Positions 7,587-45,932 of a DNA stretch of 64,000 bases are shown here, piece by piece; within the stretch, counting starts at the first letter, position 1; each line of letters starts with the position of its first letter. This DNA is from Dictyostelium discoideum (lineage: Eukaryota), in assembly GCA_000004695.1 (NCBI GenBank), contig CM000154.2, forward strand, positions 2,432,001 to 2,496,000, written 5' to 3'. Under the pieces are notes generated by a model that was not told the DNA's origin, ran no database searches, and saw only the letters and a list, made by a program, of their open reading frames with translations. The translations under genes were made by a program, and so were the position numbers.

Positions 7587-8335
7587 TTAGTATGTAAGAC
7601 TAACCCAATAAACATTAAATGGATTATTTAAATAACTATTTGAAAAAATTGTTTTCTTTGATTTGAAACCATGATTAAAATCTACCACCTCCAATAAGAA
7701 TTGATTTTCATCGATATAAGTAATAAAAACCAAAGAGGATTTATCTCTTGATAAAAAGTAAGGAGAGAAAGCATAAGGAACAGTACCAATATTATATTTG
7801 AATACACCAAAACATTCCATTAATATAGAATCTACTTCACATACAAAGACATCACCACTATTATCTTGATATACTAAGAATAGATTACCCAATTTATCAG
7901 TGAACATCATTGTAACATCAAAACCTTGAATATTTTTAAGAATACCATAAGTTTCAATAATGTCAGAAGTAGTTTCATTAAATGCCACTAAAACATTATT
8001 ATTTGATGAATTATAACATGCGAATACGTAATCATTCAATTGATCATATGCAACATTTGGTATACTACCAGCGGTTGAAATTTGATTTTCATTTGATATA
8101 TTTACAAATGTACCTTTACCACTTTCAAAATCTAAACGTAATAAACTACTAAGTTCACCACCACCATTAATATCTACCACTGGTTTATACAATACCTTTT
8201 TTTCACTAATAAATACACTTGGTTGAAGCATATCTTCAAATCCTGCTATTGGTGGTGTTATTTTATTAATTAATTTTGATTGTAATGTCTAATAAATAAA
8301 TTAAAAATTAATAAATAAATTAATAAATTAAAAAA

Positions 8336-8402
<67 letters not shown>

Positions 8403-8889
8403 ATTAATAAACAAATACATTTGGGTTAATTGAAATCAATGATTGATTTGTACTTTCAGAATAAACAATAAACTAAAATAAATAAATGAAAAAAAAAAAA
8501 AAAAAAAATTTAGGAAGGTTAGAATATTATTTTTTAAAAAATAAAATGATAATAATAAAAATAAAAATAATTAATTTAATAATTACAGTATTTGATTCTT
8601 CAACAATTAAAATATCATCAATTTCGAAATTAAGTTGTAAAGATTCACTTAAAATTGTATTATTTTCCCAAGGATCAATAATCAAAAATTGTTGTTGTTT
8701 ATAATTTTCAATAACTGCAATTGCATAAATATATTTTGAAGGTGCAGGTGAGGATGAACTTTCGGATGAAGACCATGATGACGAAGACGATGATGATGAT
8801 GAAGACGATGATGATGATGAACTTGCAAATGAAATTGATATAAAAAAAAATGAAATTATAAAAATTAAAATTGTTTTTTTAAATATCAT
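7587..8889 (-). CDS. Secreted Ser-rich hypothetical protein. complement(join(7587..8288,8587..8889)).
   Basis: N-terminal signal peptide (MIFKKTILIFIISFFFISISFA) is followed by a run of ~18 Ser. The GTAATT donor after ...EESNT (8586-8585) and the acceptor ttAG (8290-8289) join phase 0 to TLQSKLINKITPPIAGFEDMLQPS... The intron carries the (AAAT)n microsatellite. Confidence 0.6.
8320..8412. repeat. (AAAT)n microsatellite, ~20 units.
   Basis: A direct aaataaataaat... run. It lies inside the intron of the 7587..8889 gene. Confidence 0.9.
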
Positions 8890-9550
8890 TTTATTTTATT
8901 TTATTTGTATATATTTAGTTACAAAAATATTTTTTATTGTGATAAGTTTTAAAAAAAAGTAAATAAAAAAAAAAAAAAAATAGAACACTGCGATTACAAT
9001 TGTGTTTTATATTGATTTTTTTTTTTTAATTTTTTTTTTAATTTATTATTTTAGAAAAGGTTTATTTTTTGAAAAAAAAAATCAAACACCACACGAAAGA
9101 AAAAAAAAAATCTAAAAGATATTTTTTTTTTGGGATTTTTAGATTTTTATTTTTATTATTTAGGAAATCAAATTTTAATTTTATTAATTTATGTAATCAA
9201 TAAAATGCGACATAATTTTTAGATAAAAAACTTACATTATATTATTGTTTTAATTAACTTAATTTTTTTTTTTCTTAATCCAGAAAAAAAGAATTTCATT
9301 CTTTTTGATTATTTTAATATCTTTTTTTTTTTTTTTTTTTTTTTTAAAAATCAATGTATTGTAATGATAATTCAAGTTTGCCCAATTTTGTAATTTAGGA
9401 TATTTTTAAATTGGGAAATCATAAAAAAATAATTTTCAAATTTCGAAAAGTGTGCAAACTTGAATGATTGTTACAATATTTAGATTATTTTTATTTTTAT
9501 TTTTTTTTTTTTATTATAATTTTTTTTTTATTTTTTTTTTTTTTAAACAA

Positions 9551-10522
9551 TCAATATAATTTTGGAATTTCAATATTTGATTGTTTATCTTTATCTAAAT
9601 CAGTAGAATTTGAAAGATTTGACCATTTTTCATTCTCTTTTAAATGAGACTGTAAAAGATTTGTACATTGATTTAAAGAATCTGAACCTAAAAATAAATG
9701 AGTTGGAATTTCATTCATACTTGGTAATTGAATTATAACATTTGCAGCTTTTTCAGGATCACCAATTGCAATTGGAGAATATTTATAAAACCTTTGAATT
9801 AATTCATTTGTTTTATATTCATCAATCATATTATTTGGTATTTGAAAATTACAAAAATAACCGTCATTATCATTCTCATTTTTATCTTTGTAACCAATTA
9901 CAAACCCAGTTCTGAATCCACCAGGACAAACTAAAATTACATTTACATTGAATGGTTTTAATTCTTTTTGAGCAGAGAATGTAATTGAATTGACAGCATG
10001 TTTAGTTGAAGAATATGCTGAATAGCATTTCATAGTACCCCAACCTAATGTTGAAGAAATGTTAATGATAGTACCAGACCTTTGTTTTCTAAGATATGGT
10101 GTTGAATGTCTTAGTAAATTTAAAACACCAAATACATTTACATCATAAATCTTTCGAAATTCAGTATCGGTTAATTCTTCAATTGACCCAACTAATCCAT
10201 ATCCTGCATTATTTATTACAATATCAATTCTTTGGAATTTCTTTATTGTTAACTCTATTGATTCTTTAACTGATTGATCATTAGTAATATCAGTTTTAAT
10301 AATTAATAAATTCTCTTTCTTATAATCAATTAGCTTTAATTGATTCTCTAATTTTTCTGGTGTACGAGTTAATGCTGAAATTAAATTTCCATTTTCTAAT
10401 AAATTTTTTACAATTATTAATCCAAAACCACTTGATGATCCACTTATTAACCAAACTTTTTCTTTATTATTAGTAAAATCATTATTAATATTATTATTAT
10501 GATTTTTATTATTTAATTCCAT
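9551..10522 (-). CDS. Short-chain dehydrogenase/reductase (SDR).
   Basis: Single exon. N-terminal TGxxxGxG-type Rossmann motif (LISGSSSGFGLIIVKNLL), an NNAGYG motif and a catalytic YxxxK (YSSTKHAVNS). Confidence 0.85.
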   Translation of the reverse strand: MELNNKNHNNNINNDFTNNKEKVWLISGSSSGFGLIIVKNLLENGNLISALTRTPEKLENQLKLIDYKKENLLIIKTDITNDQSVKESIELTIKKFQRIDIVINNAGYGLVGSIEELTDTEFRKIYDVNVFGVLNLLRHSTPYLRKQRSGTIINISSTLGWGTMKCYSAYSSTKHAVNSITFSAQKELKPFNVNVILVCPGGFRTGFVIGYKDKNENDNDGYFCNFQIPNNMIDEYKTNELIQRFYKYSPIAIGDPEKAANVIIQLPSMNEIPTHLFLGSDSLNQCTNLLQSHLKENEKWSNLSNSTDLDKDKQSNIEIPKLY

Positions 10523-10799
10523 TATATTATATCATAATAATTATAATAACCCCTTTTAAAAAAAATAAAATTATTATTTCTTAAATTTAATTTTTTTTTT
10601 TTTTATTTTTTAAATTATTTTTATTTTATTTATATTTTATTATTTTTTTTTTTAAAAGACTCATTTTCACCCTATTAGTATTAGTACAAAAATTCCATTA
10701 TAATATAAATTAAATGACCCCTTTTAAATAAAGAAAAATTAGTATTTCTTAAATTTAATTTTTTTATTTTTTTTTTTTAAATTTTTTTTATTTTTTTTT

Positions 10800-11600
10800 T
10801 ATTATGTGAAATACAGCAAGGTGGTAATATGGAGAATTACCAAATAAAATTATGAATATCATTATTCAGTAATTTTAGCTTTTTTCTTGAGGTTCAGAAT
10901 CTTTTGTTTGATTCAGCTAACATTTTGATTCTTCTCTGATTTAAGGGAATAAATGATGTAGGCTAGTGATTCTGTATCAAATTCTTTCATTAAGTCTAGA
11001 ATTCACCACCTAATTATATTCTATTGAATTGATAAATGGNNNNNNNNNNNNNNNNNNNNNNNNNNNNNNNNNNNNNNNNNNNNNNNNNNNNNNNNNNNNN
11101 NNNNNNNNNNNNNNNNNNNNNNNNNNNNNNNNNNNNNNNCTCGTTCTTGCGTCTATTTTTTGAATGTTATGGACTTTTTAATATTTCATCTTAGCCATTT
11201 ATCAATTCTAACCTTGATGTGTAATGTCATGTCATTAAAGGGTTTGAGGCTTTCTGTCTTGATTCTTTTCGGCTACATTCTCTTTCTTCCTTCAAATTGC
11301 AATCAAAGTAACAAATTGTATCTGTCAAACTTAATTAAGTTGTTTGTTTACCAACTTTGTAATCTTTCAATCCATATTCTAATTTTTACGGTTTAATGCA
11401 ATAGAATATTATTAGCTTTGCCAATTGATTTCTATCAAAAAACGATACAATTGAATATTAAATCAGATAACATAGTGGAGTCTATTGTTAAATTTTTCTT
11501 GGAAATTGAAAAATCCAATAATCTTGTTAAAACTTTTTGATCATTATTTTCAATTATATAATATATTGGACTTTTTCCATATGAATCTTTCAATTTATAA
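10800..11600. mobile_element. Probable transposable-element/LTR-like repeat fragment spanning an assembly gap.
   Basis: Base composition and k-mer texture differ from the surroundings (GC ~30%, no homopolymers). There is no long ORF. It is interrupted by a 100-N scaffold gap at 11040-11139, which is typical of repeat-induced assembly breaks. The element family is not identifiable by eye. Confidence 0.35.
11040..11139. other. Assembly gap (100 N).
   Basis: A run of exactly 100 N characters. Confidence 1.
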
Positions 11601-11859
11601 AAAAAAAAAAAAAAGTTAGCAACTAAATAAAATTTAAATATTAATAAAAGTACCTACACATTTATTAATTTTTGTGTTCCTTTTTTAGTTTTTATCCCAT
11701 ACAAAAAAAAGGTGAAAAAAAAAATAATTATTATATATTATTTTTAATTCCATTTTGTAAAAAAAATAAAATTATTATTATATAATATTTTTTTATTATT
11801 TTTAAAAAAAAAAAAAAAAAAAATTATTTAAAAAAGTATTAAATATTGTGGATTAAAAA

Positions 11860-12085
11860 AAAAATTATTAAAAAAAAAAAAATAACAATATTGGTGACCA
11901 AAAAAAAAAATCACAATATTGGTGACCAAAAAAAAAAATAATATAAAATCACAGGATTGGTGATCAAAAAAAAAAATTAATAAAAAATCATAGGATTGGT
12001 GATAAAAAAATCACAATATTGGTGGTCAAAAAAAAAATTATATAAAAAAAAAAAAATCACAGGATTGGTGATGAAAAAAAAAAAT
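11860..12085. repeat. Degenerate tandem repeat (~30-40 bp unit, ~6 copies) with a palindromic core.
   Basis: Repeated units of A-run + 'aatcacaatattggtgac' / 'aatcacaggattggtgat'. The core TCAC-AATATT-GGTGA is a near-perfect inverted repeat. It lies 60-280 bp upstream of the WD40 gene's ATG. Confidence 0.8.
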
Positions 12086-13585: not shown

Positions 13586-15671
13586 TAAAATTTTTATTTT
13601 GACTATGAATAATCCTTTCATTACCATCATAATTCTTTTTTATATAAACTTGAATTGAAAATAAAGCTGAAGGTGTTATACCAGAGATTTTTGAAGCAGA
13701 AGAGAAATTTGTTGGACGAGCTTTTGATAGAATTTGTTTTGATTCTGTTGATAATTGAGAAATATCCCAATAGTTTAAAGATGGTGGTATTAATTGATTC
13801 TCTCTTTTACGTAGATTATTGAATTCAATAACATGTTTATCTACATAATTTGAATATTTACATTCACTATCAATGATTGATATATATAGTGGTGGTATTT
13901 TCTCCAAGAGATCAGTTGGTAAATAACGTTTAATCAAATTGAAATCAACATGTGGTCTTCTTAGAATTTCAAATAGTGATTTCTTTTCATGTACATTTTC
14001 AATACCACATTGGGTTAAATATTCTGATGGTGATTTTTTAATTTCTTTTAATTTACTGTAAACTTGATCTAGCAATGATTGTTTCTCTTTTAACGCTTGC
14101 AATTGGTGATTTGAGGCACTACCAAATTCAAATGCCTTTTCGGTTAATCTTTGGTCGGAATTATGAGCACGTAATGATATACGATACTCTGAACGACTTG
14201 TAAACATTCTATAAGGTTCAGTTACGCCCAATGTCACCAAATCATCGATTAATACGCCAATGTACCCCTCGGATCTGCTAATGATCATTGGGGGACGATT
14301 TTGATGGGAGAGACTTGCATTTATACCCGCGACAATACCTTGAGCACCTGCTTCCTCGTAACCAGTGGTACCGTTGATTTGACCGGCTAAAAACAGACCA
14401 CTGATTTTTTTAGTCTCCAATGTATGATTGAGTTCCCTTGGGTCTATATAATCATACTCTACGGCGTAGCCTGGTTTTAACATTTTCACATTCTCCAAGC
14501 CTGGTATGGTTTTTAAAAATTTCATTTGTACATCCTCTGGTAGGGAAATCGAGATACCGTTTGGGTAGATCACATCGGTGGTGTACCCCTCGGGCTCTAT
14601 CCACACTTGGTGGGTCTTGCCTTGGAATCGCTCGATCTTTGTCTCAATCGATGGGCAATAACGTGGGCCTAAACCTTTACCATCTTCACCCGACTCTAAT
14701 GCGGGTCTACTTGAAAGATTATCAATGATGATTTGATGAGACTCTTCAGTGGTTCTCGTCATAAAACATTTCAATTGTCTTTGATCATTCTTTACCTTAC
14801 TATTACTAAATGAGAATGGTAATGGTATCTCATCACCAACTTGCTCAACCATCACACTATAATCAATTGACTTACCATCCAATCTTGGTGGTGTACCAGT
14901 CTTTAATCTCCCCAATTCAAACCCTATCCTATTCAATGTCAATGATAATGCAGTGGCAGCTTTATCTCCCATTCTACCAGATGGTATTCGTTTATTACCA
15001 ATATGAATTATACCACCTAAAAATGTACCTGTAGTAATCACAACTTTCTTACATTTTATAATTTCACCATTATCCAAAATTATACCTTTAATTGTTTTTT
15101 TATTTTTACCATTGTCCCCTTCCTCTCCTCCTTCTTCTTCATCTAAAATTATATCTTCAACCATACCTTCTTTAATTGATAAATTACCACCATTGTCTTG
15201 AGTGATTTTCCATAATAAATTATGAATTGATTCTCTATATAATTCACGATCGATTTGAGCACGTGGACCATGTACTGCACTACCTTTACTTTGATTTAAA
15301 ACTTTAAATTGACAACCACTTTCATCAGCTGCCAAACCCATTATACCACCGATTGCATCGATCTCTCTAACTAAATTACCTTTACCAACACCACCAATAG
15401 ATGGATTACATGACATTACACCAATAGTATCAATACTTTGAGTTATCAATAATGTTTTACTACCAACTCTTGCTGAGGCTGCTGATGCTTCTGTACCTGC
15501 ATGTCCACCACCAATTACAATCACATCAAATTCTTTAATTTCATTTTCATTCTTTAATGGTGATTTAAATAATTTTTCATTAATTTTATTATTATTATTA
15601 TTATCATTATTATTGCTTTCTTCTTTTAAAATATTTGTTGAAAATAATCTTTTATTATTATTTATTATTGA

Positions 15672-15728
<57 letters not shown>

Positions 15729-15857
15729 TATTATTAAATTATTATTATTATAATAATTAATTATATTTTTATTAAAATAATAATTATTTAATAATATTTT
15801 ATTTTTATTTAATTTTAATGATTCTTTGAATATGTTTTTATTTAAACATTTTAACAT
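13521..15857 (-). CDS. Mitochondrial tRNA uridine 5-carboxymethylaminomethyl modification enzyme MnmG/GidA (MTO1 homolog).
   Basis: The 778-aa single exon has an FAD-binding N-terminus ([30 protein letters not shown]) and the conserved GidA core ([12 protein letters not shown]..., [27 protein letters not shown]). It carries an N-rich mitochondrial-type leader and a poly-Q C-terminus. Confidence 0.9.
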
Positions 15858-16282
15858 TTTTTCGTAAATTAATTAAAAAAAAAAAGTAAAAAAAAAAAAA
15901 TCACACTTGTCAGGTGTGGTGAATCGATTTTTCAAAGTATTTATTTTTTTTTTTTTAAATTTTTTTTTTTTTTTTTTTAATTTTTTTTAATTTTTTTTTT
16001 TTTTTTTTTTTTTTTTTCATTTTTAATTTAATATATTACAAATTCCATCTACATCCAAATTAACACATAAAAAAAATATAAAATAATAATAAAAAAAAAA
16101 CAATAATTTTATAAGCAATAAATATTTATTTACATATGTTTTATTATTAATATTATAATTTTTTATTTATATATATATATATTTTTTTTTTTAATGAACC
16201 AAAGTAAATAAAAAAAGTGTATATGACATTTTTTTTTTTTTTTAATAGATATATTAATATATATCAAATAAATAAATAAATA

Positions 16283-16856
16283 ATGTCATCACCATCAAAT
16301 TCATCACCTATTAAAATTGATTCTACAACGACAGCAGCAACAACAACAACACAAGGAAGTGGTAGTACAATTAATATTGAAACAGCAAATAAAAATGAAT
16401 TAATCGAATTTATAAAGAAACAAGCAATTCATATTAAAAAATATGAAAATAAATATTCAACAGTGATTGAAACTTATAAGAAATTAAAGAATGAAAATTT
16501 GGAATTAATTAAAAAGCAACAAAATCAAGAAGAAGAAATTTCATTATCAAAACAAACTTCAAATTCAATCATTGAATCATTACAATCTGAAATCAATAAA
16601 TTATCATCATCTTCAAATACTCTACAAAAAATGAAAGAACAAATTGAAGAGAATCTACAAAATAGATTTCAACATGAGAAATCATTATTTCAAGATGAAA
16701 TTAAATCATTACAATCTCAAAAACAAGATTTACAATTAAAATTACAAAATATTGAACAACAACATCAATTAGAATTACAACAACAACATCAAAAAATTCA
16801 ACAAGAATTTCAACAAGAAATTATAAAACAAAAACAAGATTTTGAAAATTTAATTC

Positions 16857-16906
<50 letters not shown>

Positions 16907-18566
16907 GATTTAAAACAAGAAGATCAACAACCAAAACAATTAAATAAACAATTAAATTATGATAGTGACTATTTAGAAAGTTTACCATTGGAGAAAAAGA
17001 TTAATATAATATTAGAAGAAGAAATAACAGAAGAAGATGAAGAAAAAGAAAATAAGAATAAAGAGGAAAAAAATATAAATAATTTAGTTGAAGCTGAAGA
17101 AGAAGAAGAAATTAATAATAGTGATAGTAATAATAATACAAAAGAATTTTATGAAAAATTTATAAATGAAAAAGAAAAAACAATTGAATTTTTAAATAAA
17201 CAAAAACAAGAGATTGAAGAAATGGTATTGGAATTTAAAGATGAAATTCAAAGTTTAAAGAAATTAAATCAAGATAAAGATATTGAATTGGAACAAGTTA
17301 AAGAGAATCTACAACAGATCGTTGAAAAGAATAATGTAACTAAAACTGAAATCATTAATAATAATGTACAAGCTGAAGAAGAGTTTACAATTCAAATCAA
17401 AAAGTTGGAGAATGAATTAGCTGAAAATAAATCTCTTTTAGAATTAAAGAATGATCAAATTGCAAAATTGAATACATATAGTGATGAGAAAATGGCGAAA
17501 TTAAAATCACTTTTACTTGGTGCTCAAAAACATGTTTCAGAACAAAAGAAACAAATCAATGACAAGTCCAATGAAATCTCACAATTGAAAGAAACAATTG
17601 AAAATTTAGATAAGAATCAATCAGAAAATGAATTACTTTCAAATGAATATGATGAAATGAAAAATAATTATGAATATAATTCTCAAAGAATTAAATTATT
17701 AGAATCTCAACTATCACAAACAAATCAATCATTATTATCAATTCAAAATGAATATAATGATTATAAAATTAAAGTTCATTATGCAATTAAAAAGAATCAA
17801 TTTGATGATGATGATAATGATGATGATGATGATGACGACGATGATAATAATAATAATAATAACAAAAATGATAAAGATAAAATAAATCAAGATGATAATA
17901 ATCAAAAAGAAAATGATAATTTAGAAAATAATAATGATCAAAATGATGAAAATTTAAATAATTTAGAAAATGACAATCTAAAAAATATCAACAATAATCA
18001 AATCATTGAAAATTTAAAGAATACATTTGAAATTGAAAAGAATCAGTTAAATGAAACCATTCAATCATTATCAGATCAAGAGAAACTATATAAAAAAGAG
18101 ATTTCAAAGATTACTGATCAATATGAAGATTCAAAAGATAATATAATAATTTTAAATTCAAAGATTCAAAATTTAAATCAAATTATTGAAACTTTAAAAG
18201 ATGATTTAAGTCAACAACAACAACAGCAACAACAACAAATAACACAAACAAAACAAGATCAACCAATAGAAAATAATAATAAAATTAATAATAACAATAA
18301 TAACGATAGTGATAATAATAATAATAATGATAATAATAATAATAAGGTTGAACAAATTAAATTAACATATGAAAATGAAATTAAATTAAAAGAAGAGAAA
18401 TATATTGAATTACAATCACAAATGAATTTATTTAAAAAAACAAATAATTCTGTTTTGAGAGAAAAAGATAAACAATTACAAGATCAAAAGAAACAAATCG
18501 AATCTTTAATAGAGGATTTGGAATCATTTAAAAATAGTAATAATAATAATAATAGTAATATTAACA

Positions 18567-35249: not shown

Positions 35250-35617
35250 ATGAGTTCTCACAAAACCTCATCAAAGTCCTCATCATCAAATAGCTCAATG
35301 AGTATGATATTGGGATTTTCTAAATCATTAGAGAAAGGTAAAATATTAGACAATTAAATATAAATAATTATTTCAATTAATAATATTAATGTAAACACTT
35401 TTTTTTATTCTTTTTTATTTTAATTTTTTATTTAGGGTCTTTTGGTGTTTTGTATGCTATGATCAAAGGAAACACATTCCCAAGAATATTGACCATCTTA
35501 AGTTTGTTGATAGAGTTTTGTCGTATGTATAAAATAAAAATAACCGCGGGGTTGATGTTATTGATTTTTTTTTTATTTTTATTTTTATTTTTTTTTTTTT
35601 TTGTGATTTCCAAAATA

Positions 35618-35654
<37 letters not shown>

Positions 35655-38600
35655 CCCAAAATTTTTCATTTTCCAAAAGTCACATGCCCACTGACAAATT
35701 TTAATTAATTAACCCCTTAATCTGTTTCTATTTTAACCAATCACAATTTTCCAAAAAAAAATAAACCCAAACCCAAAAAAAAAAAAAAAAAAAAAATAAT
35801 AAAAAATTAATAATAAAATAATAAATAAAAAAATAATAATAAAAAATTTAATAAAAAATTAAATAATAATAATAAATAAAAATAAAATTACAATGAATAG
35901 AATTATCATCTTTTGGTTTTAAACATCAATATCCATGGGGTGGTGATGCTGGATAGTAAGTTTTTAATTTATTGTTATACCAAAATAATTAAATAGCTTT
36001 TTAACAAATTTTTTATTATATTATTATTATAATTATTATTACTTTTAAAAAATTATTAGTTATTTAAAAAAAATTATGTCACCAATTAGTCATCCATCAG
36101 ATGTTATTGGGTATACTGGTTTTACAATCTTTTTTTGGATTGTCATTGGTTTGATGTTATTAGGTTTTTTAAATATTTGGTATGTTGCATATCAATTTTA
36201 TCGTGGTAAAATTGCAAATATTTGGATTATTAGAACTCTTCGTTGGTTTGTTAGTACTACTGTAGCAGTTTTATTTATTCCAATCATTTCCTTACTTTTA
36301 ATTGGTTTGGATTGTGAGTACACAAGTAAAGGTGCTTTTCTTAGAAAGTTTGGTGGTGAAAATATTTATTGTTATAAAGGTGCAAACTTACCAATTGCAA
36401 TTATTTCAATTATTTTTATTATTTTTTTCAGTCAAGTTGGTTTTACATCAAGTGCAACCTATTATGAATATGATCCAAATGTTAAATCAAGATTTGCTAA
36501 ACCACATGCAAGAGTAAGATATTTTCTTTTTATTTTGTTTTATTTTTAAACTTTTTACTAATTTTTATTTTTTATTTTTATTATTAAATTATTTAGTTAG
36601 ATGTTATTATTTTATTAGTAAAACTTATTCTTGCATTATTAAATTCATTAGTTGATTTTTCACCATGGACAACATCAATTGTATTTTTTATTTTATCATT
36701 AGCATTAGTACTTGGATCAATTTTAGTTTTACCATATAATAATCAAAGATTAAATCAAATAAAGAGTGGATTTTATGCAACAGTATTTTGGGTATCATTT
36801 ATGACATTGGTAAATATGGGCATTAATGATGAAACATCACCAGCTACATGTTATGTTACAATTGTTGGTGTATTCTTTGCTTTTCCAGTTGGTTACTTTT
36901 CCAATAGATTATTTTATAAATTTTTATGTTCAAAGATTAACCAATTAAGAATTCCATCAACTTTATCAACTATGGATCTTCATGAAAATAAAGATAAAGA
37001 AAATGATAAATATGAAACTCATACTTCAAGAGTAACATGGGGTAGACAACCAGTAACATTGGGTAGTAAAAGACAAATTATACTTCCATTTTTCGGTAGT
37101 AAATTTGCATTTCCATTCTTTGTTGAAATCATGGCAAGAAAATTATTAAGAGGTAGTAATGAAGGTGTTTCAAGTAGTCCAATTGAATCAATTGAACGTG
37201 CAAATAATCTTTATCAATGTGGTTTACAATATTTCCCAAATTCAGATATATTATGGATGGCATATTGTAACTTTTTATTCACAGTTAGAAAAGATAGACA
37301 TATCGGTTATGCTGCATTAGAAAAACTTAGAAGAATGAATCCTTCTTTCGATGTTCGTTTCTTCATTTATCAACGTGATAAAGAAAGAGAACAAATTATG
37401 GATTCAGATTTACGTGGTCCAGAACATACAGGTAAAATTCAAGATTTCGTCAGTTACATGGAATTTAAAAAACTTTATTATGGTGCTAAAAGACATCATG
37501 TTAAATGTTTAACATATATTAAAAAGTTTTGGGGTTTATTATTACATGAAACAGTTGATCTTCATCGTTTATCAGATTTATCAGGTCGTATTGCAACAAC
37601 TGAAAATAAAGCAAATGAAAGTTATGAACGTTTGTTAGCACTCAATCCAAATTCAGTTAGAGTACTTCGTGATTATTCTCAATTCCTTGAAGAAGTTGTA
37701 AGAGATAAAGAATCATCATATAAATTACAAAAGAAAGCAGAAGCAATCGAAGACATCATGAGTAAAAGTCAAACAACTGATTTTAAAACAATTGATATTA
37801 AAAATTTAGAAGACTCTGATACAGAAGTTGATCAAGTATTAAAACAAGAACCAAATGCAATTCAATTGGCAAAGATTGATGCAGATATTGAAAAATCAGG
37901 ATCAAAATCAGGATCATCAAAATCAAAAGATGATTCATCAGAATCAAGTAGTTCATCAAAAGGTAGAAGTAATAAATATAAGGAATTCCAACAAAGTAAT
38001 GCAATTAACAAACTTTCATGGTTAATGATTGGTACAACTGCATGTTGTGTTATTTATTTAATTATTGTTTTGGTTGTATTCAGAGGATTGGCAGTTAAAC
38101 ACACCAATGCATATCAAGGTATTTTATCAATTACAGATTGTGCAACTGAAGCAGTTTCAATTGCAATCAATTTAAATACTATGCAAGCATATGCATTAGG
38201 TGCTGGCTTAAGTTTCCCAATTGAGGCAGCTGTTGAACAAATTAATATTTTAAAAGCTCAAAACGATAGAAGTTTAATTATAATGAAAAATATCCATGAT
38301 GCAATTTATTGGGGTGAAGGTAATCCAGCTGCATATGTTGGTGATAATTTATCCAAATTAAAAGATAGAAATGGTATTGATGTTTTCGATATTGGTTCAA
38401 CCATTTTCACATTTGATCAATTCAATCGTTCAAACACCGTTTTAGAAAATAAAAGAATGATTCAAATTTATAGTGAACCATCAGTCAATATGTCAATTTT
38501 GGTTGCACCAAAAGGGACCAATACAACTACTCATTATTCTCAAACTTATAACGCTTGGAAAGCTGGCAATGCTTTCATTGAAAGTGCAATCATAGCCAAT

Positions 38601-40115
38601 AAATTATCAGTTTATGATTTCATAAATGGTTCCACAAATCCAGATTTGAAGTTTGTAATTTTAAATGCACCAAGCAATATTCCAGATATTTATTTAAAAA
38701 TACAACAAGCTTATATAGATTCTTTGGTTGACAATATTATGAACACTTTGAATACGATCCTTTACGTTTGGTTGGCCATTTTTGGTTTTCTTGTTGTTAT
38801 TGGTGCTGTTTTATTCCGTCCAATTGTTAGAAAGATTTCTCGTGAAAAGATTCGTACACTTGTATTATTTTCATTGGCACCAAGAGATGTGGTAATTAAA
38901 CTTTCAACAAAGAAAATTAAAATGGTTAGTTTAGATAGTGGTAGTGAACGTGATAATCTTTTCGATACAACTGACGATGATGATGGACGTGATGATCACG
39001 AACATCTTCACCATGATAGTGATAATACCCCCACAGGAGAAAGAAAAAAGAACGACGATATTGTATCAATTAATGTTACTGATCCAACTGGTGCAACTCT
39101 CTCTTTATCTCCATCCAATCCAAGAAAACATTCTCAATCCTCAGATAATGAAGCAGAAAACCGTTCATCCAACAAAAGCAACAATCAATTTGGTGATCGT
39201 CGTCCATTAATGGATTCAACTGGTGTTTTAGCATCGACAACTTTAAATAATAGAAAATCCAATGAAGAAAAACCAAAATCAGAAGAAGAAAGCAGAGATG
39301 AATATAATAAGAAATATGGTTGGGATGGAAAGACTAAAAGAAATTTAAATAAGAAATCACTCAGATCAGTATTGAGACGTCTTCATTGGTCTTATGTTTT
39401 AGCAATCTTTTTATTATTTGGTTTTATTACAATGGGTATTTGGGTATCATTTACAGTTGTATTTAATAACTCACAATCTGGCTATACCTTGGGTAAAAGT
39501 AGTACAAGAGCATTAAACAGTCGTATCATTAATTTCTATGTAGCTGAACTATATACATTTGATAATGACGCAAACGAACAAAAAGCAATGGACGCTGTAA
39601 CCCATTTACAAGAGAACCATCAATCATTACCATACCTTGAAGAGGTTAGACCATTGATGGAAGGCTCCTATGGTTGTTGGATGCTTAATAAAAGTGATTG
39701 TCTTACAAGAGATTCAATTTATTATTCTGATGTCAGTGTTGGTCTTGACTGGTTAATCGATCAATATGCAAAACACTGTGTATCTCTATTCAACACTGAT
39801 TCTGCAACTCTTGGAACAAGTCCAGAGTTGGCCTGGTTACAAGCAATTGGCTCAAACGTAATGTTCCAAGGCTTGGATACTGCAACTTTTACTTATTTCG
39901 AATACTACCTCTCACTACAAGATTGGGCCACAAAAGTTTTGACTTCAGTTTTAGCTGTTAGTTGTGTTTTATTAGTAATTATATATCTTGTATTATTTAG
40001 ACCATTTATGAATCATCTTAGGATTCAACATATTCATACTTTGGCCTTATTACGTTTAGCTCCTGACGATATTAGATTCATGGAAGTTAGTGATAAAGTT
40101 ATTGACGAAGATTAA
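35250..40115 (+). CDS. Large multipass membrane protein with a cytosolic TPR/HAT-like module, paralog A. Core exons join(36076..36513,36597..40115); probable 5' exons 35250..35337, 35436..35522, 35901..35955, joined via acceptor 36060.
   Basis: The core has a 4-TM N-terminus, then a GTAAGA donor at 36514 and acceptor AG 36595-36596 that splices in frame to LDVIILLVKLILALLNSLVDFSPW... It continues through a TPR-like block (LYQCGLQYFPNSDILWMAYCNFLFTV...), a TM, a ~550-aa luminal/extracellular region and C-terminal TMs. Three short upstream exons are conserved in paralog B while the intervening introns are not. The third ends ...GGDAG at 'ta|GTAAGT', and an in-frame 5-codon linker (YLKKI) reaches the core ATG. 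Confidence 0.6.
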
Positions 40116-41230: not shown

Positions 41231-41347
41231 ATGTCATCAACTAAATCAGGTTCCTCAAAATACTCATCTGGAAGTTCCATTAGTTTAATAATGGGTTTTT
41301 CCAGATCATTAGAAAAAGGTAATAATTAGTTTTTAAGAGGGAAGTTC

Positions 41348-41403
<56 letters not shown>

Positions 41404-44400
41404 AAATTACTAAAACCAAAAAAATATTTATTAAAAAAAAAAAAAAAATACAGGATCATTTGGTGTTTTGTATGCAATGATCAAAGGAAATACATTCCCA
41501 AGAATATTAACTATCTTAAGTATGCTAATTGAGTTTTGCCGTATGTATAAATATAATTTTAATTTTTTTTTTTTTTTCTTTTTCACTTTTTTTTTAGTTT
41601 TCAATTTTTTTTTTTTTTTTTCAATGTTAGAGTTTTAATGAATAAAATTATTTAACTCTTTTAAATTTTATATCAATGAAATAGAATTATCATCATTTGG
41701 TTTTAAACATCAATATCCATGGGGTGGAGATGCTGGATAGTAAGTATTAATTTTTTTTTTATTATTATTTTAAAAAGAAAAATATTAATACTAACATTGT
41801 ATTAATTTTAAAAAGTTATTTAAAAAGAATTATGTCACCAGTAAGCCATCCATCAGATGTATTTGGTTACTTGGGATTTACAATTTTATTTTGGATTGCT
41901 GTTGGTTTATTGATTTTGGGTTTTTTAAATATTTGGTATGTTGCATATCAATTTTATCGTGGTAAAATTGCAAATATTTGGATTATTAGAACTCTTCGTT
42001 GGTTTGTAAGTTTCTCAGTGGCTGTATTATTTATTCCAATCATTTCCTTACTTTTAATTGGTTTGGATTGTGAAGGATCAAGTGAAGGTACCATCTTAAG
42101 AAAGTTTGACAATGAAACCATTCAATGCTTTAGAGGTGCAAATTTACCAATTGCCGTAATTTCAATTATTTTAATTGTAGTTTTCAGTATTGTTGCCTTT
42201 ACATCTAGTGCAACCTATTATGAATATGATACAAATGTTAAATCAAGATTTTCAAAACCACATGCAAGAGTAAGAAATATTATTATTATTATTATTATTT
42301 CTTTTTTAAATAATTTTATTAATTTTTATATATTTTTTTTTTTTTTTATAAAAAATATTTTTTAGTTTGATGTAACAGTTTTATTTGCAAAATTTGTGTT
42401 TGCATTTTTCAATTCATTAGTCGATTTTGTACCATGGTTAACATCAATAACATTTTTTGTTTTTATGGTGATATTAACTTTTGGATCAATTATTGTTTTA
42501 CCATATAATAATCAAAGATTAAATCAAGTTAGAAGTGGATTCTATACAGTTGTTCTTTGGGTATCATTTATGACATTGGTAACTATGGGTATTAATGATG
42601 AAACATCACCAGCTACATGTTATATTACAATTGTTGGTGTATTCTTTGCTTTTCCAATTGGATTTTTCTCAAATATGTTTTATTTCAAATGGTTATCATC
42701 AAAAGTTTCCGATATTCAAATTTTAAATCAAAGTCCAAGTATGGATCTTAAAGATGCCAATAAAAAAGGTAAACGTAATAGTGTTGAAAAAGAATCATCA
42801 CCAACATCAAAAGTAACATGGGGTAAACAACCAATTACATTGGGTAGTAAAAGACAAATCATTTTCCCATTCTTTAAAAAGAAGTTTGTAATGTCATTCT
42901 TTGTTGAAATCATGGCAAGATCAATATTAAATAATAACAATGAAGGTGTTTCAAGTAGTTCAAATGAGTCAATTGAACGTGCAAATAATCTTTATCAATG
43001 TGGTCTTCAATATTTCCCAAATTCAGATTTATTATGGATGGCATATTGTAACTTTTTATTCACAGTTAGAAAAGATAGACATATTGGTTATGCTGCATTA
43101 GAAAAACTTAGAAGAATGAAACCATCATTCGATGTTCGTTTCTTCATTTATCAACGTGATAAAGAAAGAGAACAAATTATGGATTCAGATTTACGTGGTC
43201 CAGAACATACAGGTAAAATTCAAGATTTTGTCAGTTACATGGAATTTAAAAAACTTTATTATGGTGCTAAAAGACATCATGTTAAATGTTTAAATTATAT
43301 TAAAAGATTTTGGGGTCATTTATTACATGAAACAGTTGATCTTCATCGTTTATCAGATTTATCAGGTCGTATTGCAACAACTGAAAATAAAGCAAATGAA
43401 AGTTATGAACGTTTGTTAGCACTCAATCCAAATTCAGTTAGAGTACTTCGTGATTATTCTCAATTCCTTGAAGAAGTTGTAAAAGATAAAGAATCATCAT
43501 ATAAATTACAAAAGAAAGCAGAAGCAATCGAAGATATCATGAGTAAAAGTCAAACAACTGATTTTAAAATTAGTGATATTAAAGCAATTGATTCCGATGA
43601 GGATGATATTGAAAAAACTCTTCAAGAACCAACAGCAATTCAATTGGCAAAGATTGATGCAGATATTGAAAAATCAGGATCAAAATCAGGATCATCAAAA
43701 TCAAAAGATGATTCATCAGAATCAAGTAGTTCATCAAAAGGTAGAAGAGGCAAATATAAGGAATTCCAACAAAGTAATGCAATTAACAAACTTTCATGGT
43801 TAATGATTGGTACAACATGTTGTTGTATTATATTTTTAATTGTTGTATTGGTTGTATTCAGAGGATTAGAAGTTAAACATACCAATGCATATCAAGGTAT
43901 CATTTCAATCACAGATTGTGCCAATGAAGCAGTTCAAATGGGTATGCATTTAAATGCAATGCAAGCATATGCTTTGGTTGCTGGTGTTGGTAATAATACA
44001 GTTGAAGCATCATTAATTGAAATTGCTAGAAGAAGAGCTTTGGTTAAAAGAGGCATTATCATTATGAAGAATATTCATGATGCAATTTATTGGGGTGAAG
44101 GTAATCCAGTTAGTTATGTTGGTGATAATTTATCCCAATTGAAAGCAAGAGATGGTTATGATATTTTCGATATTGGTTCAGTAATTTTCACATTTGATCA
44201 ATTCAATCGTTCAAGTACTTTATTGGATAATAAACAAATGATTGAACTTTACAGTCAGCCATCAGTCAATATGTCGGTTTTAGTTGCACCACCAGGTTCT
44301 AATACAACTTCACTCTATACTCAAACTTATAACGCTTGGAAAGCTGGTAATGCTTTCATTGAAAGTGCAATGCTTGCTAGTGATGTTACATTTGATGAGC

Positions 44401-44820
44401 TTAGATACTCTGTCAACCAAAATCCAAATTTCAAATTTGTAACAATTAACGCCCCAGTAATTATGCCAGATATTTATAATAAGGTTCAAACAGCTTATAT
44501 CGATTCATTGGTTTCCGATATCACTGGTACATTAGATGCAATTCTCTATACTTGGTGTGGTATTTTCGCTGTACTCTTTTTAATTTGTGCCGTTTTATTC
44601 CGTCCAATTGTTAGAAAGATTTCTCGTGAAAAGATTCGTACACTTGTATTATTTTCATTGGCACCAAAAGATGTTGTTGTTAAACTTTCAACAAAGAAAA
44701 TTAAAATGGTTAGTTTAGATAGTGGTAGTGAACGTGATAATCTTTTCGATACAACAGATGATGATGGACGTGATGATCATCTTGGAGAAGATGACAACAA
44801 TATTCAAACCCCAGTTGGTG

Positions 44821-44854
<34 letters not shown>

Positions 44855-45932
44855 TAACAATAATAATGGTTCAATATCATCAAACGTTACAAAATCAGAT
44901 GGAGAAATTGGTTCAGATGGTGTTCGTAGTAGTAGTGGTAGTAATGTTTTAAATACATCATCACCATATAGAGATAGACGTCCATTAATGGATTCAACTA
45001 GTGTTTTGGCATCAACAGCAACATTAAATAATAGAAATGTAAGATTACAAGCTAAAGATGAAGAAATAACTAATGGTGGTGGTGAAAGAAAAGGTAGTGA
45101 TGCAACAAGAACAGCTCTTTCAGAGGATAAAAAATATGGTTGGGATGGAAAGAGTAAAAGAAATTTAAATAAGAAATCACTTAAATCAATTTTAGGTCGT
45201 CTTCATTGGAGTTATATCCTTGCTACATTCTTATTGTTTGGTTTCATCACTATGGGCATTTGGGTAACATTCACTGTCGTATTTAATAATTCTCAATCTG
45301 GTTATACATTGGGTAAAAGTTGTTCAAGATCATTGAATAGTCGTGTCATCAATTATTATGTTGCCGAATTGTATACCTATAGTCAATATGTAAGTACTCA
45401 AAATATGGTTGATGCAATCACAGAATTACAAAGCAGTCATCAATCATTGCCATACCTTGAAGAGGTTAGACCATTGATGGAAGGTTCATACGGTTGTTGG
45501 GCACTTAATAAAAGTACTTGTCTTCCACCATCCTCTATGTACTATGAAGAAGTTAATAGTGGATTGGATAGAGTTGTTGACAGTTTGGCAAAGAAAGCAA
45601 TTAATTTGGCTTATACCGATCAAGCTGCCTTATTAGATAGTCCAGATTTACAATGGTTCTTAGCACTCATCGATTATATTTTCATTGGTCTTGACACTGC
45701 AACCTTCACTTATTTCGACTATTTCTTAGAAAAACAAGAATGGGCAAATACAGTTTTAACCGCTATTCTATCTGTTAGTTGTGTTATTCTATTGGTAGTT
45801 CATGTAGTATTATTTAGACCATTTATGAATCATCTTAGAATTCAACATATTCATACTTTAGCCTTATTACGTTTAGCTCCTGATGATATTAGATATATGG
45901 AAGTTAGTGATAAAGTTATTGATGAAGATTAA
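41231..45932 (+). CDS. Large multipass membrane protein, paralog B (tandem duplicate of 35250..40115). Core join(41832..42269,42366..45932); probable 5' exons 41231..41318, 41454..41540, 41685..41739, joined via acceptor 41816.
   Basis: Same architecture and splice positions as paralog A: GTAAGA donor after ...KPHAR, and acceptor tttAG|TTTGATGTAACAGTT giving FDVTVLFAKFVFAFFNSLVDFVPW. The upstream mini-exons encode MSSTKSGSSKYSSGSSISLIMGFSRSLEKG / SFGVLYAMIKGNTFPRILTILSMLIEFC / QLSSFGFKHQYPWGGDAG, almost identical to copy A. Confidence 0.6.

Follow-up and report, generated by a model that had tools for sequence, protein, structure and literature searches.

Small upstream exons as the N-terminal coding part of two tandem TmcB/TmcC-family genes in Dictyostelium discoideum

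The window analysed here is a stretch of 64,000 nucleotides (nt) of the Dictyostelium discoideum genome (assembly GCA_000004695.1, contig CM000154.2, positions 2,432,001 to 2,496,000 of the forward strand), with a G+C content of about 20%, homopolymer-rich intergenic DNA and poly-Asn tracts. It carries two tandem paralogs of the TmcB/TmcC family on the + strand, copy A and copy B, whose long open reading frames (ORFs) cover 36801-40115 and 42396-45932, respectively. An earlier note on this DNA had pointed to three short conserved pieces upstream of each paralog, and had left the choice between an N-terminal extension of the membrane protein and a separate, duplicated micro-protein. The pieces lie where they had been placed, in both copies, and it is nearly certain in our view that they are exons 1 to 3 of a tandemly duplicated pair of TmcB/TmcC-family genes with five exons each.

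The membership of both genes in this family is clear from their content. The Pfam domain PF25474 (TPR_TmcB; 'TmcB, TPR repeats') is found in copy A (E = 3.3e-46, 156.7 bits) and in copy B (E = 3.4e-48, 163.1 bits) with scores far above the Pfam gathering cut-off of 27, and in each copy it goes together with an N-terminal multi-pass membrane domain that is contiguous with the peptides of the mini-exons. The 'tiny macrocysts' family TmcB/TmcC shows the same TPR_TmcB domain and the same multi-pass membrane domain, beginning with the peptide of exons 2 and 3 in both of our copies. The structure of copy A is as follows.

35250..35337, + strand: exon 1 of copy A, 88 nt, ending in phase 1; Ser-rich N-terminus MSSHKTSSKSSSSNSSMSMILGFSKSLEK plus G, start codon in the context AAAATG, donor G/GTAAAA.
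35338..35435, + strand: intron 1 of copy A, 98 nt, GT...AG, 9% G+C, 40% identical to intron 1 of copy B.
35436..35522, + strand: exon 2 of copy A, 87 nt, encoding GSFGVLYAMIKGNTFPRILTILSLLIEFC, where the family-wide homology starts.
35523..35900, + strand: intron 2 of copy A, 378 nt, GTATGT...AG, phase 1, at a position kept in Cavenderia and Heterostelium.
35901..35955, + strand: exon 3 of copy A, 55 nt, encoding QLSSFGFKHQYPWGGDAG plus TA, the first two bases of a Tyr codon.
35956..36059, + strand: intron 3 of copy A, the 'spacer' of the earlier note, 104 nt, GTAAGT...AG, phase 2.
36060..36513, + strand: exon 4 of copy A, whose first 16 nt (T TAT TTA AAA AAA ATT) complete YYLKKI and whose remainder encodes transmembrane helices.
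36514..36596, + strand: intron 4 of copy A, 83 nt, GTAAGA...AG, phase 0.
36597..40115, + strand: exon 5 of copy A, which runs to the stop codon and encodes what remains of the membrane domain, TPR_TmcB and the C-terminal region.

When copy A is spliced at 35337/35436, 35522/35901, 35955/36060 and 36513/36597, it yields an open coding sequence of 1400 codons in which the ATG of the big ORF (36076) becomes the internal Met83. An exact look-up in a protein collection returned this product of 1400 amino acids (aa) as identical at every residue to XP_636336.1, EAL62836.1 and UniRef100_Q54HV3, that is, to DDB_G0289205 of D. discoideum AX4 (UniProt Q54HV3, 'TmcB/TmcC TPR repeats domain-containing protein'), from which it differs in nothing. 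Exons 1 to 3 of copy A are therefore already known and contained in the reference model. The three upstream junctions that had been proposed are correct to the base by the match to XP_636336.1, and the extension of the membrane protein is real at the level of the reference protein; since that protein exists, the description of the extension as unannotated was wrong for copy A. The biological weight of the result is in this sense small, because it re-derives exons that the curated AX4 model already holds, although it shows that splice-site reasoning from sequence alone was accurate to base level. Two sizes need correction: the peptide that ends at the TAG of exon 3 is 76 aa long, not 77, and the extension, which had been described as having four exons, consists of three upstream exons and 16 nt of exon 4, for a total of 82 aa.

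Copy B has the same structure.

41231..41318, + strand: exon 1 of copy B, MSSTKSGSSKYSSGSSISLIMGFSRSLEK plus G.
41319..41453, + strand: intron 1 of copy B, 135 nt.
41454..41540, + strand: exon 2 of copy B, GSFGVLYAMIKGNTFPRILTILSMLIEFC.
41541..41684, + strand: intron 2 of copy B, 144 nt.
41685..41739, + strand: exon 3 of copy B, QLSSFGFKHQYPWGGDAG plus TA.
41740..41815, + strand: intron 3 of copy B, 76 nt, GTAAGT...AG, with an ACTAAC branch-point-like motif 26 nt before the 3' splice site.
41816..42269, + strand: exon 4 of copy B, starting T TAT TTA AAA AGA ATT ATG and encoding YYLKRIMSPVSH and onwards.
42270..42365, + strand: intron 4 of copy B, 96 nt.
42366..45932, + strand: exon 5 of copy B, ending at the stop codon.

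This five-exon model has 1416 codons, and the ATG of the big ORF lies at 41832. As had been noted before, the third piece ends in GGATA/GTAAGT with its TAG in both copies, and the frame stays open into the big ORF. The length then given for the spacer, about 100-105 nt, holds for copy A (104 nt) but not for copy B (76 nt). Every intron of both copies is GT...AG, with a G+C content of 4-16%, and the reading frame remains open over each junction. A predicted tryptic peptide, HQYPWGGDAGYYLK, crosses the junction of exons 3 and 4 and is the same in A and B.

The comparison of the two copies separates exons from introns sharply. At the nucleotide level, A and B are 67% identical in exon 1, 87% in exon 2, 96% in exon 3 and 85% in exon 4, whereas introns 1 to 3 are 33-57% identical, approximately what global alignment of such AT-rich sequence gives regardless; the spacers are in this sense unconserved. 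Over codons 30-82 of the spliced frame, 12 of the 14 differences are synonymous (10/11 in exon 2 and 2/2 in exon 3), with a proportion of synonymous differences (pS) of 0.365 and of nonsynonymous differences (pN) of 0.016, or a pN/pS of about 0.04. Read over the same codons, the two other frames have a pN at least as high as pS and contain 2-6 stops. When six gene copies of three genomes are compared in pairs, 15/15 pairs show the same pattern of selection, restricted to frame 0. The conservation of the mini-exons is far beyond chance, and we can confirm that purifying selection acts on them at the protein level, with free divergence of the introns.

The junctions are shared well beyond the two copies of the window. 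They are the same in six Dictyostelium gene copies and in the Cavenderia ortholog, with intron lengths that vary freely (77-135 nt for intron 1, 144-378 nt for intron 2 and 64-104 nt for intron 3). Five further gene copies likewise have GT...AG introns with the frame kept, the donors overall being GTAAGT, GTATGT, GTGAGT, GTAGGT and GTAA(A/T), and the ends of intron 3 being GTAAGT, GTGAGT or GTATGT and AG. Some of this variation is visible within the species: intron 2 of copy B has 144 nt in the window vs 291 nt in another D. discoideum strain (L005 16319-16609), and intron 2 of copy A has 378 nt, so that large indel polymorphisms of the introns adjoin perfectly conserved exons. Branch-point-like motifs (ACTAAC or ACTAAT) are seen 25-28 nt before the 3' splice site of intron 3 in several copies (41740-41815; L005 16665-16748; L001 2370-2433), and intron 3 of copy A has no such motif.

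Comparative evidence comes from orthologs that have lost introns or the internal Met. In Heterostelium album PPL_08805 (L008 1501-2315), introns 1 and 3 are absent; only intron 2 remains, with its position and phase unchanged. The genome of this species reads across the junction of exons 3 and 4 as CCATGGGGAGGAGAAACCGGTTATTGGTTAACACGTATTATTGCACCATTTTCACATCCA (PWGGETGYWLTRIIAPFSHP), uninterrupted and with no stop, and its coding sequence is also contiguous over the junction of exons 1 and 2. In Cavenderia fasciculata DFA_09050 (L007 1501-2827), intron 3 is present with the same GGATA/GTAAGT donor, as are introns 1 and 2 at the D. discoideum positions, and exon 4 starts TTATTTAAAAAGAATTGTATCACC (TTATTTAAAAAGAATT-GTA-TCACC), with Val in place of Met83. 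The position of Met83 is thus Val (GTA) in Cavenderia, Ile (ATT) in Heterostelium, and Y, N, L or F in more distant homologs. These two orthologs, which both lack the internal Met, share with those of D. firmibasis (RB653_008876) and D. citrinum (ACTFIV_008667/008669) the succession MSS...Ser-rich...GxxGVLYAMxKxNTFPxxLTI...EFxQLxSFGFK...PWGG..GY.L..I. The 16 nt ahead of the ATG (TTATTTAAAAARAATT) encode YLK(K/R)I in preferred AT-rich codons and are conserved for that reason; even Cavenderia has them nearly unchanged. Junctions 1/2 and 3/4 are validated by the Heterostelium gene, which lacks introns 1 and 3; a transcript-derived ORF from Diphylleia and the ORF of a Logan contig (L006) serve as further validation of the junctions. 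In these respects the five-exon model, known for copy A, gains a comparative proof from the intron loss in Heterostelium and the loss of the internal Met in Cavenderia.

Homology to the extension reaches across eukaryotes. With the spliced N-terminus (338 aa) as query and a threshold of E <= 0.001, exhaustive searching by HMMER gave 443 homologs, most of which align in a single stretch from residue ~25 to ~330, and several full-length ones carry PF25474. In the retrieved sequences, close orthologs included, 121 of the 146 long alignments (>200 residues) begin at or before residue 35, that is, inside or before the peptide of exon 2. Proteins of Synstelium and Chromosphaera are among these homologs, as are an ORF in a Trinity transcript of Diphylleia rotans and, on a Logan contig of 4262 nt (L006), an ORF that runs without interruption for 1386 aa. 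In an alignment of 11 sequences, two residues of exon 3 (F63 and W71) do not vary, and three of exon 2 (Y36, M38 and K40) hardly do. A word-indexed search with the same 338-aa N-terminus found no homolog, which is a limit of that search given the 443 found by HMMER; with the TPR region of copy B it returned one short Logan protein only, whose contigs do not reach the N-terminus. The first Met of the long ORF lies about 55 residues inside the conserved N-terminal membrane domain of the TmcB family, a point that matters for N-terminal tagging or knock-in. No Pfam family model covers the N-terminal 338 aa, and among solved structures none is convincingly related to this membrane domain.

An AlphaFold2 model of residues 1-338, built from a 29-sequence alignment without a row for spliced copy B, has a predicted local distance difference test score (pLDDT) of 86.3 and a predicted template modelling score (pTM) of 0.83. 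A modelled helix at 46-65 crosses the junction of exons 2 and 3, and another at 73-87 crosses that of exons 3 and 4 and contains Met83, with a local pLDDT of 80-93; residues 1-11, in the Ser-rich tail, have low confidence (pLDDT <50). On this model, the helix at 46-65 is the second one and probably the first to be embedded in the membrane, in a domain that has approximately eight more; the membrane topology proposed here for the N-terminal domain of the family is putative. GT-AG splicing would then join the three small exons to the large ORF and add 82 N-terminal residues, giving a protein of ~1400 aa in a family of large multi-pass membrane proteins whose TPR/HAT-like domain is predicted to be cytosolic. 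Exon 1 would contribute a Ser-rich, poorly conserved tail, and the membrane domain would get its conserved start from exons 2 and 3 and the 16 nt that open exon 4: a predicted amphipathic helix, the moderately hydrophobic helix 46-65 and the short helix 73-87 that holds the 'start' Met of the big ORF, with the TPR_TmcB domain coming after the membrane domain.

Several gene models from other assemblies agree with this structure. In the 90%-identity cluster of the copy A protein, the same N-terminus is carried by orthologous models of D. discoideum (two other assemblies) and of D. citrinum (two assemblies). In GCA_054859385.1 (D. discoideum), the called B gene starts 1115 nt past the end of gene A, as the ATG of exon 1 does in the window, and its product of 1418 aa has the length of the five-exon model there. 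The B ortholog of D. citrinum, as called (L001 15805-20611, 1441 aa), begins and ends where the five-exon model does and has its length.

Several points weigh against our reading. In the annotation of GCA_054859205.1 (D. cf. discoideum), the locus of copy A is split into an 83-aa gene (L009 7120-7936) and a truncated gene of 1294 aa (8001-11984). Exact look-up in the collection of proteins did not retrieve the 1416-aa product of copy B, nor its orthologs in D. citrinum and in a second strain of D. discoideum. The helix at 46-65 is moderately hydrophobic (mean Kyte-Doolittle 1.35 over residues 46-64), so that its transmembrane label is an interpretation. Finally, we infer that the introns are removed from D. 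discoideum RNA, a step taken here from DNA and protein sequences. On the first of these points, the 1294-aa gene begins at an internal Met, and the DNA of GCA_054859205.1 is intact for copy A, with a fully open five-exon model of 1402 aa; the locus of copy B is treated in the same way there, as a 59-aa gene (L009 13081-13684) and an N-terminally truncated gene of 1299 aa (13799-17945). A small gene followed by a truncated large one is an annotation artefact in this assembly and not biology. At least one recent public annotation is flagged in this way, and the case shows how easily exons of this size are missed. The same truncation is seen in KAM9987934.1, from a sister assembly. As to the second point, the absence of B-type proteins would reflect a gap in the collection rather than tell us anything about annotation, and a long poly-Asn run as its cause is a guess.

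The explanation that competes most directly is that exons 1 to 3 form a separate duplicated gene for a 76-aa micro-protein ending at the TAG, and that the large protein starts at the ATG at 36076 in copy A or 41832 in copy B. It can invoke the in-frame TAG that is found at the end of exon 3 in each Dictyostelium copy examined and in Cavenderia, an ATG that follows this TAG after 120 nt in copy A or 92 nt in copy B, and the split annotation of GCA_054859205.1. The TAG is nevertheless fully accounted for. It arises because a phase-2 intron that starts with G splits a TA/T codon for a conserved Tyr, which is TAT in Heterostelium; being automatic, it carries no information and has no function of its own, and we have rejected the idea of a special signal in the overlap of the TAG with a perfect donor. 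The stop is moreover absent from the Heterostelium ortholog, whose coding sequence is contiguous over the junction, and where the big ORF has its ATG, Cavenderia has GTA and Heterostelium ATT, so that there is no conserved initiator Met. Homologs throughout eukaryotes align through the junction in one stretch. The spacer, of 64-104 nt among the copies, has canonical intron ends, and no AATAAA polyadenylation signal was found in intron 3 of A or B. Exact look-up retrieved neither of the two 76-aa peptides, nor versions of A and B that start at Met83, and the reference model is the fused form. The extension is favoured over the micro-protein by four independent arguments, namely the intron loss in Heterostelium, the lack of an initiator Met in orthologs, the family-wide homology and the modelled helices; the contiguous junction, the missing Met and the homology through the junctions contradict a separate micro-protein, to which we leave hardly any probability.

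A milder alternative keeps the five-exon gene but lets it make both products, normal splicing giving the full-length protein and regulated retention of intron 3 giving a 76-aa fragment made of the tail and the first helix. Retention would stop translation at the first base of the intron in every Dictyostelium copy and in Cavenderia, and this possibility fits all the sequence data. Positive evidence for it is nil, however. The stop simply follows from the Tyr codon together with the phase of the intron, whose sequence shows no conservation (A and B are 57% identical, in AT-rich sequence). Heterostelium has no intron 3 and therefore cannot make the fragment, and an mRNA that retains the intron is an expected target of nonsense-mediated decay, which also counts against this idea. 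We consider it very improbable, if a shade less so than the separate micro-protein, and we would give the same slight chance to its use as a regulated switch, with retention yielding the 76-aa fragment or shutting off the full-length product, for example in sexual development. The last alternative, that the conserved pieces are non-coding regulatory elements of a promoter or 5' untranslated region, kept after the duplication and open in frame by coincidence, has in its favour that they are found in AT-rich sequence ahead of a long ORF. It is refuted by the excess of synonymous substitutions (12/14) in a single frame and by protein homology out to Diphylleia, Chromosphaera and many other eukaryotes, and its probability is practically nil. 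The five-exon structure, with the small exons encoding the N-terminus of the membrane protein, is thus the reading we retain for both copies.

What the family does is known from one member only, tmcB, which PMC12750705, with reference to Muramoto et al. (2005 Mech Dev 122:733), describes as regulating cyclic AMP (cAMP) signalling when macrocysts form. Copy A is named only as a hypothetical member of the family, not as tmcB or tmcC. Our literature search gave no match for DDB_G0289205 or 'tiny macrocysts', and PMC12750705 was the only paper mentioning tmcB.

Across the whole window, a tblastn search with the whole gene found no third copy of the gene or of the mini-exons, and an Rfam scan gave zero matches. 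The poly-Asn tract of copy B (44823-44867) has 16 Asn here vs 20 in the other D. discoideum strain and 33 in D. citrinum. Finally, D. citrinum has three tandem copies of the TmcB family vs the two of the D. discoideum window. Its extra copy (L001 1782-6581; KAN0024265.1, 1418 aa), located upstream of the A ortholog, contains the same three mini-exons and matches the five-exon model exactly, and its nearest relative is KAK5579197.1 of D. firmibasis.

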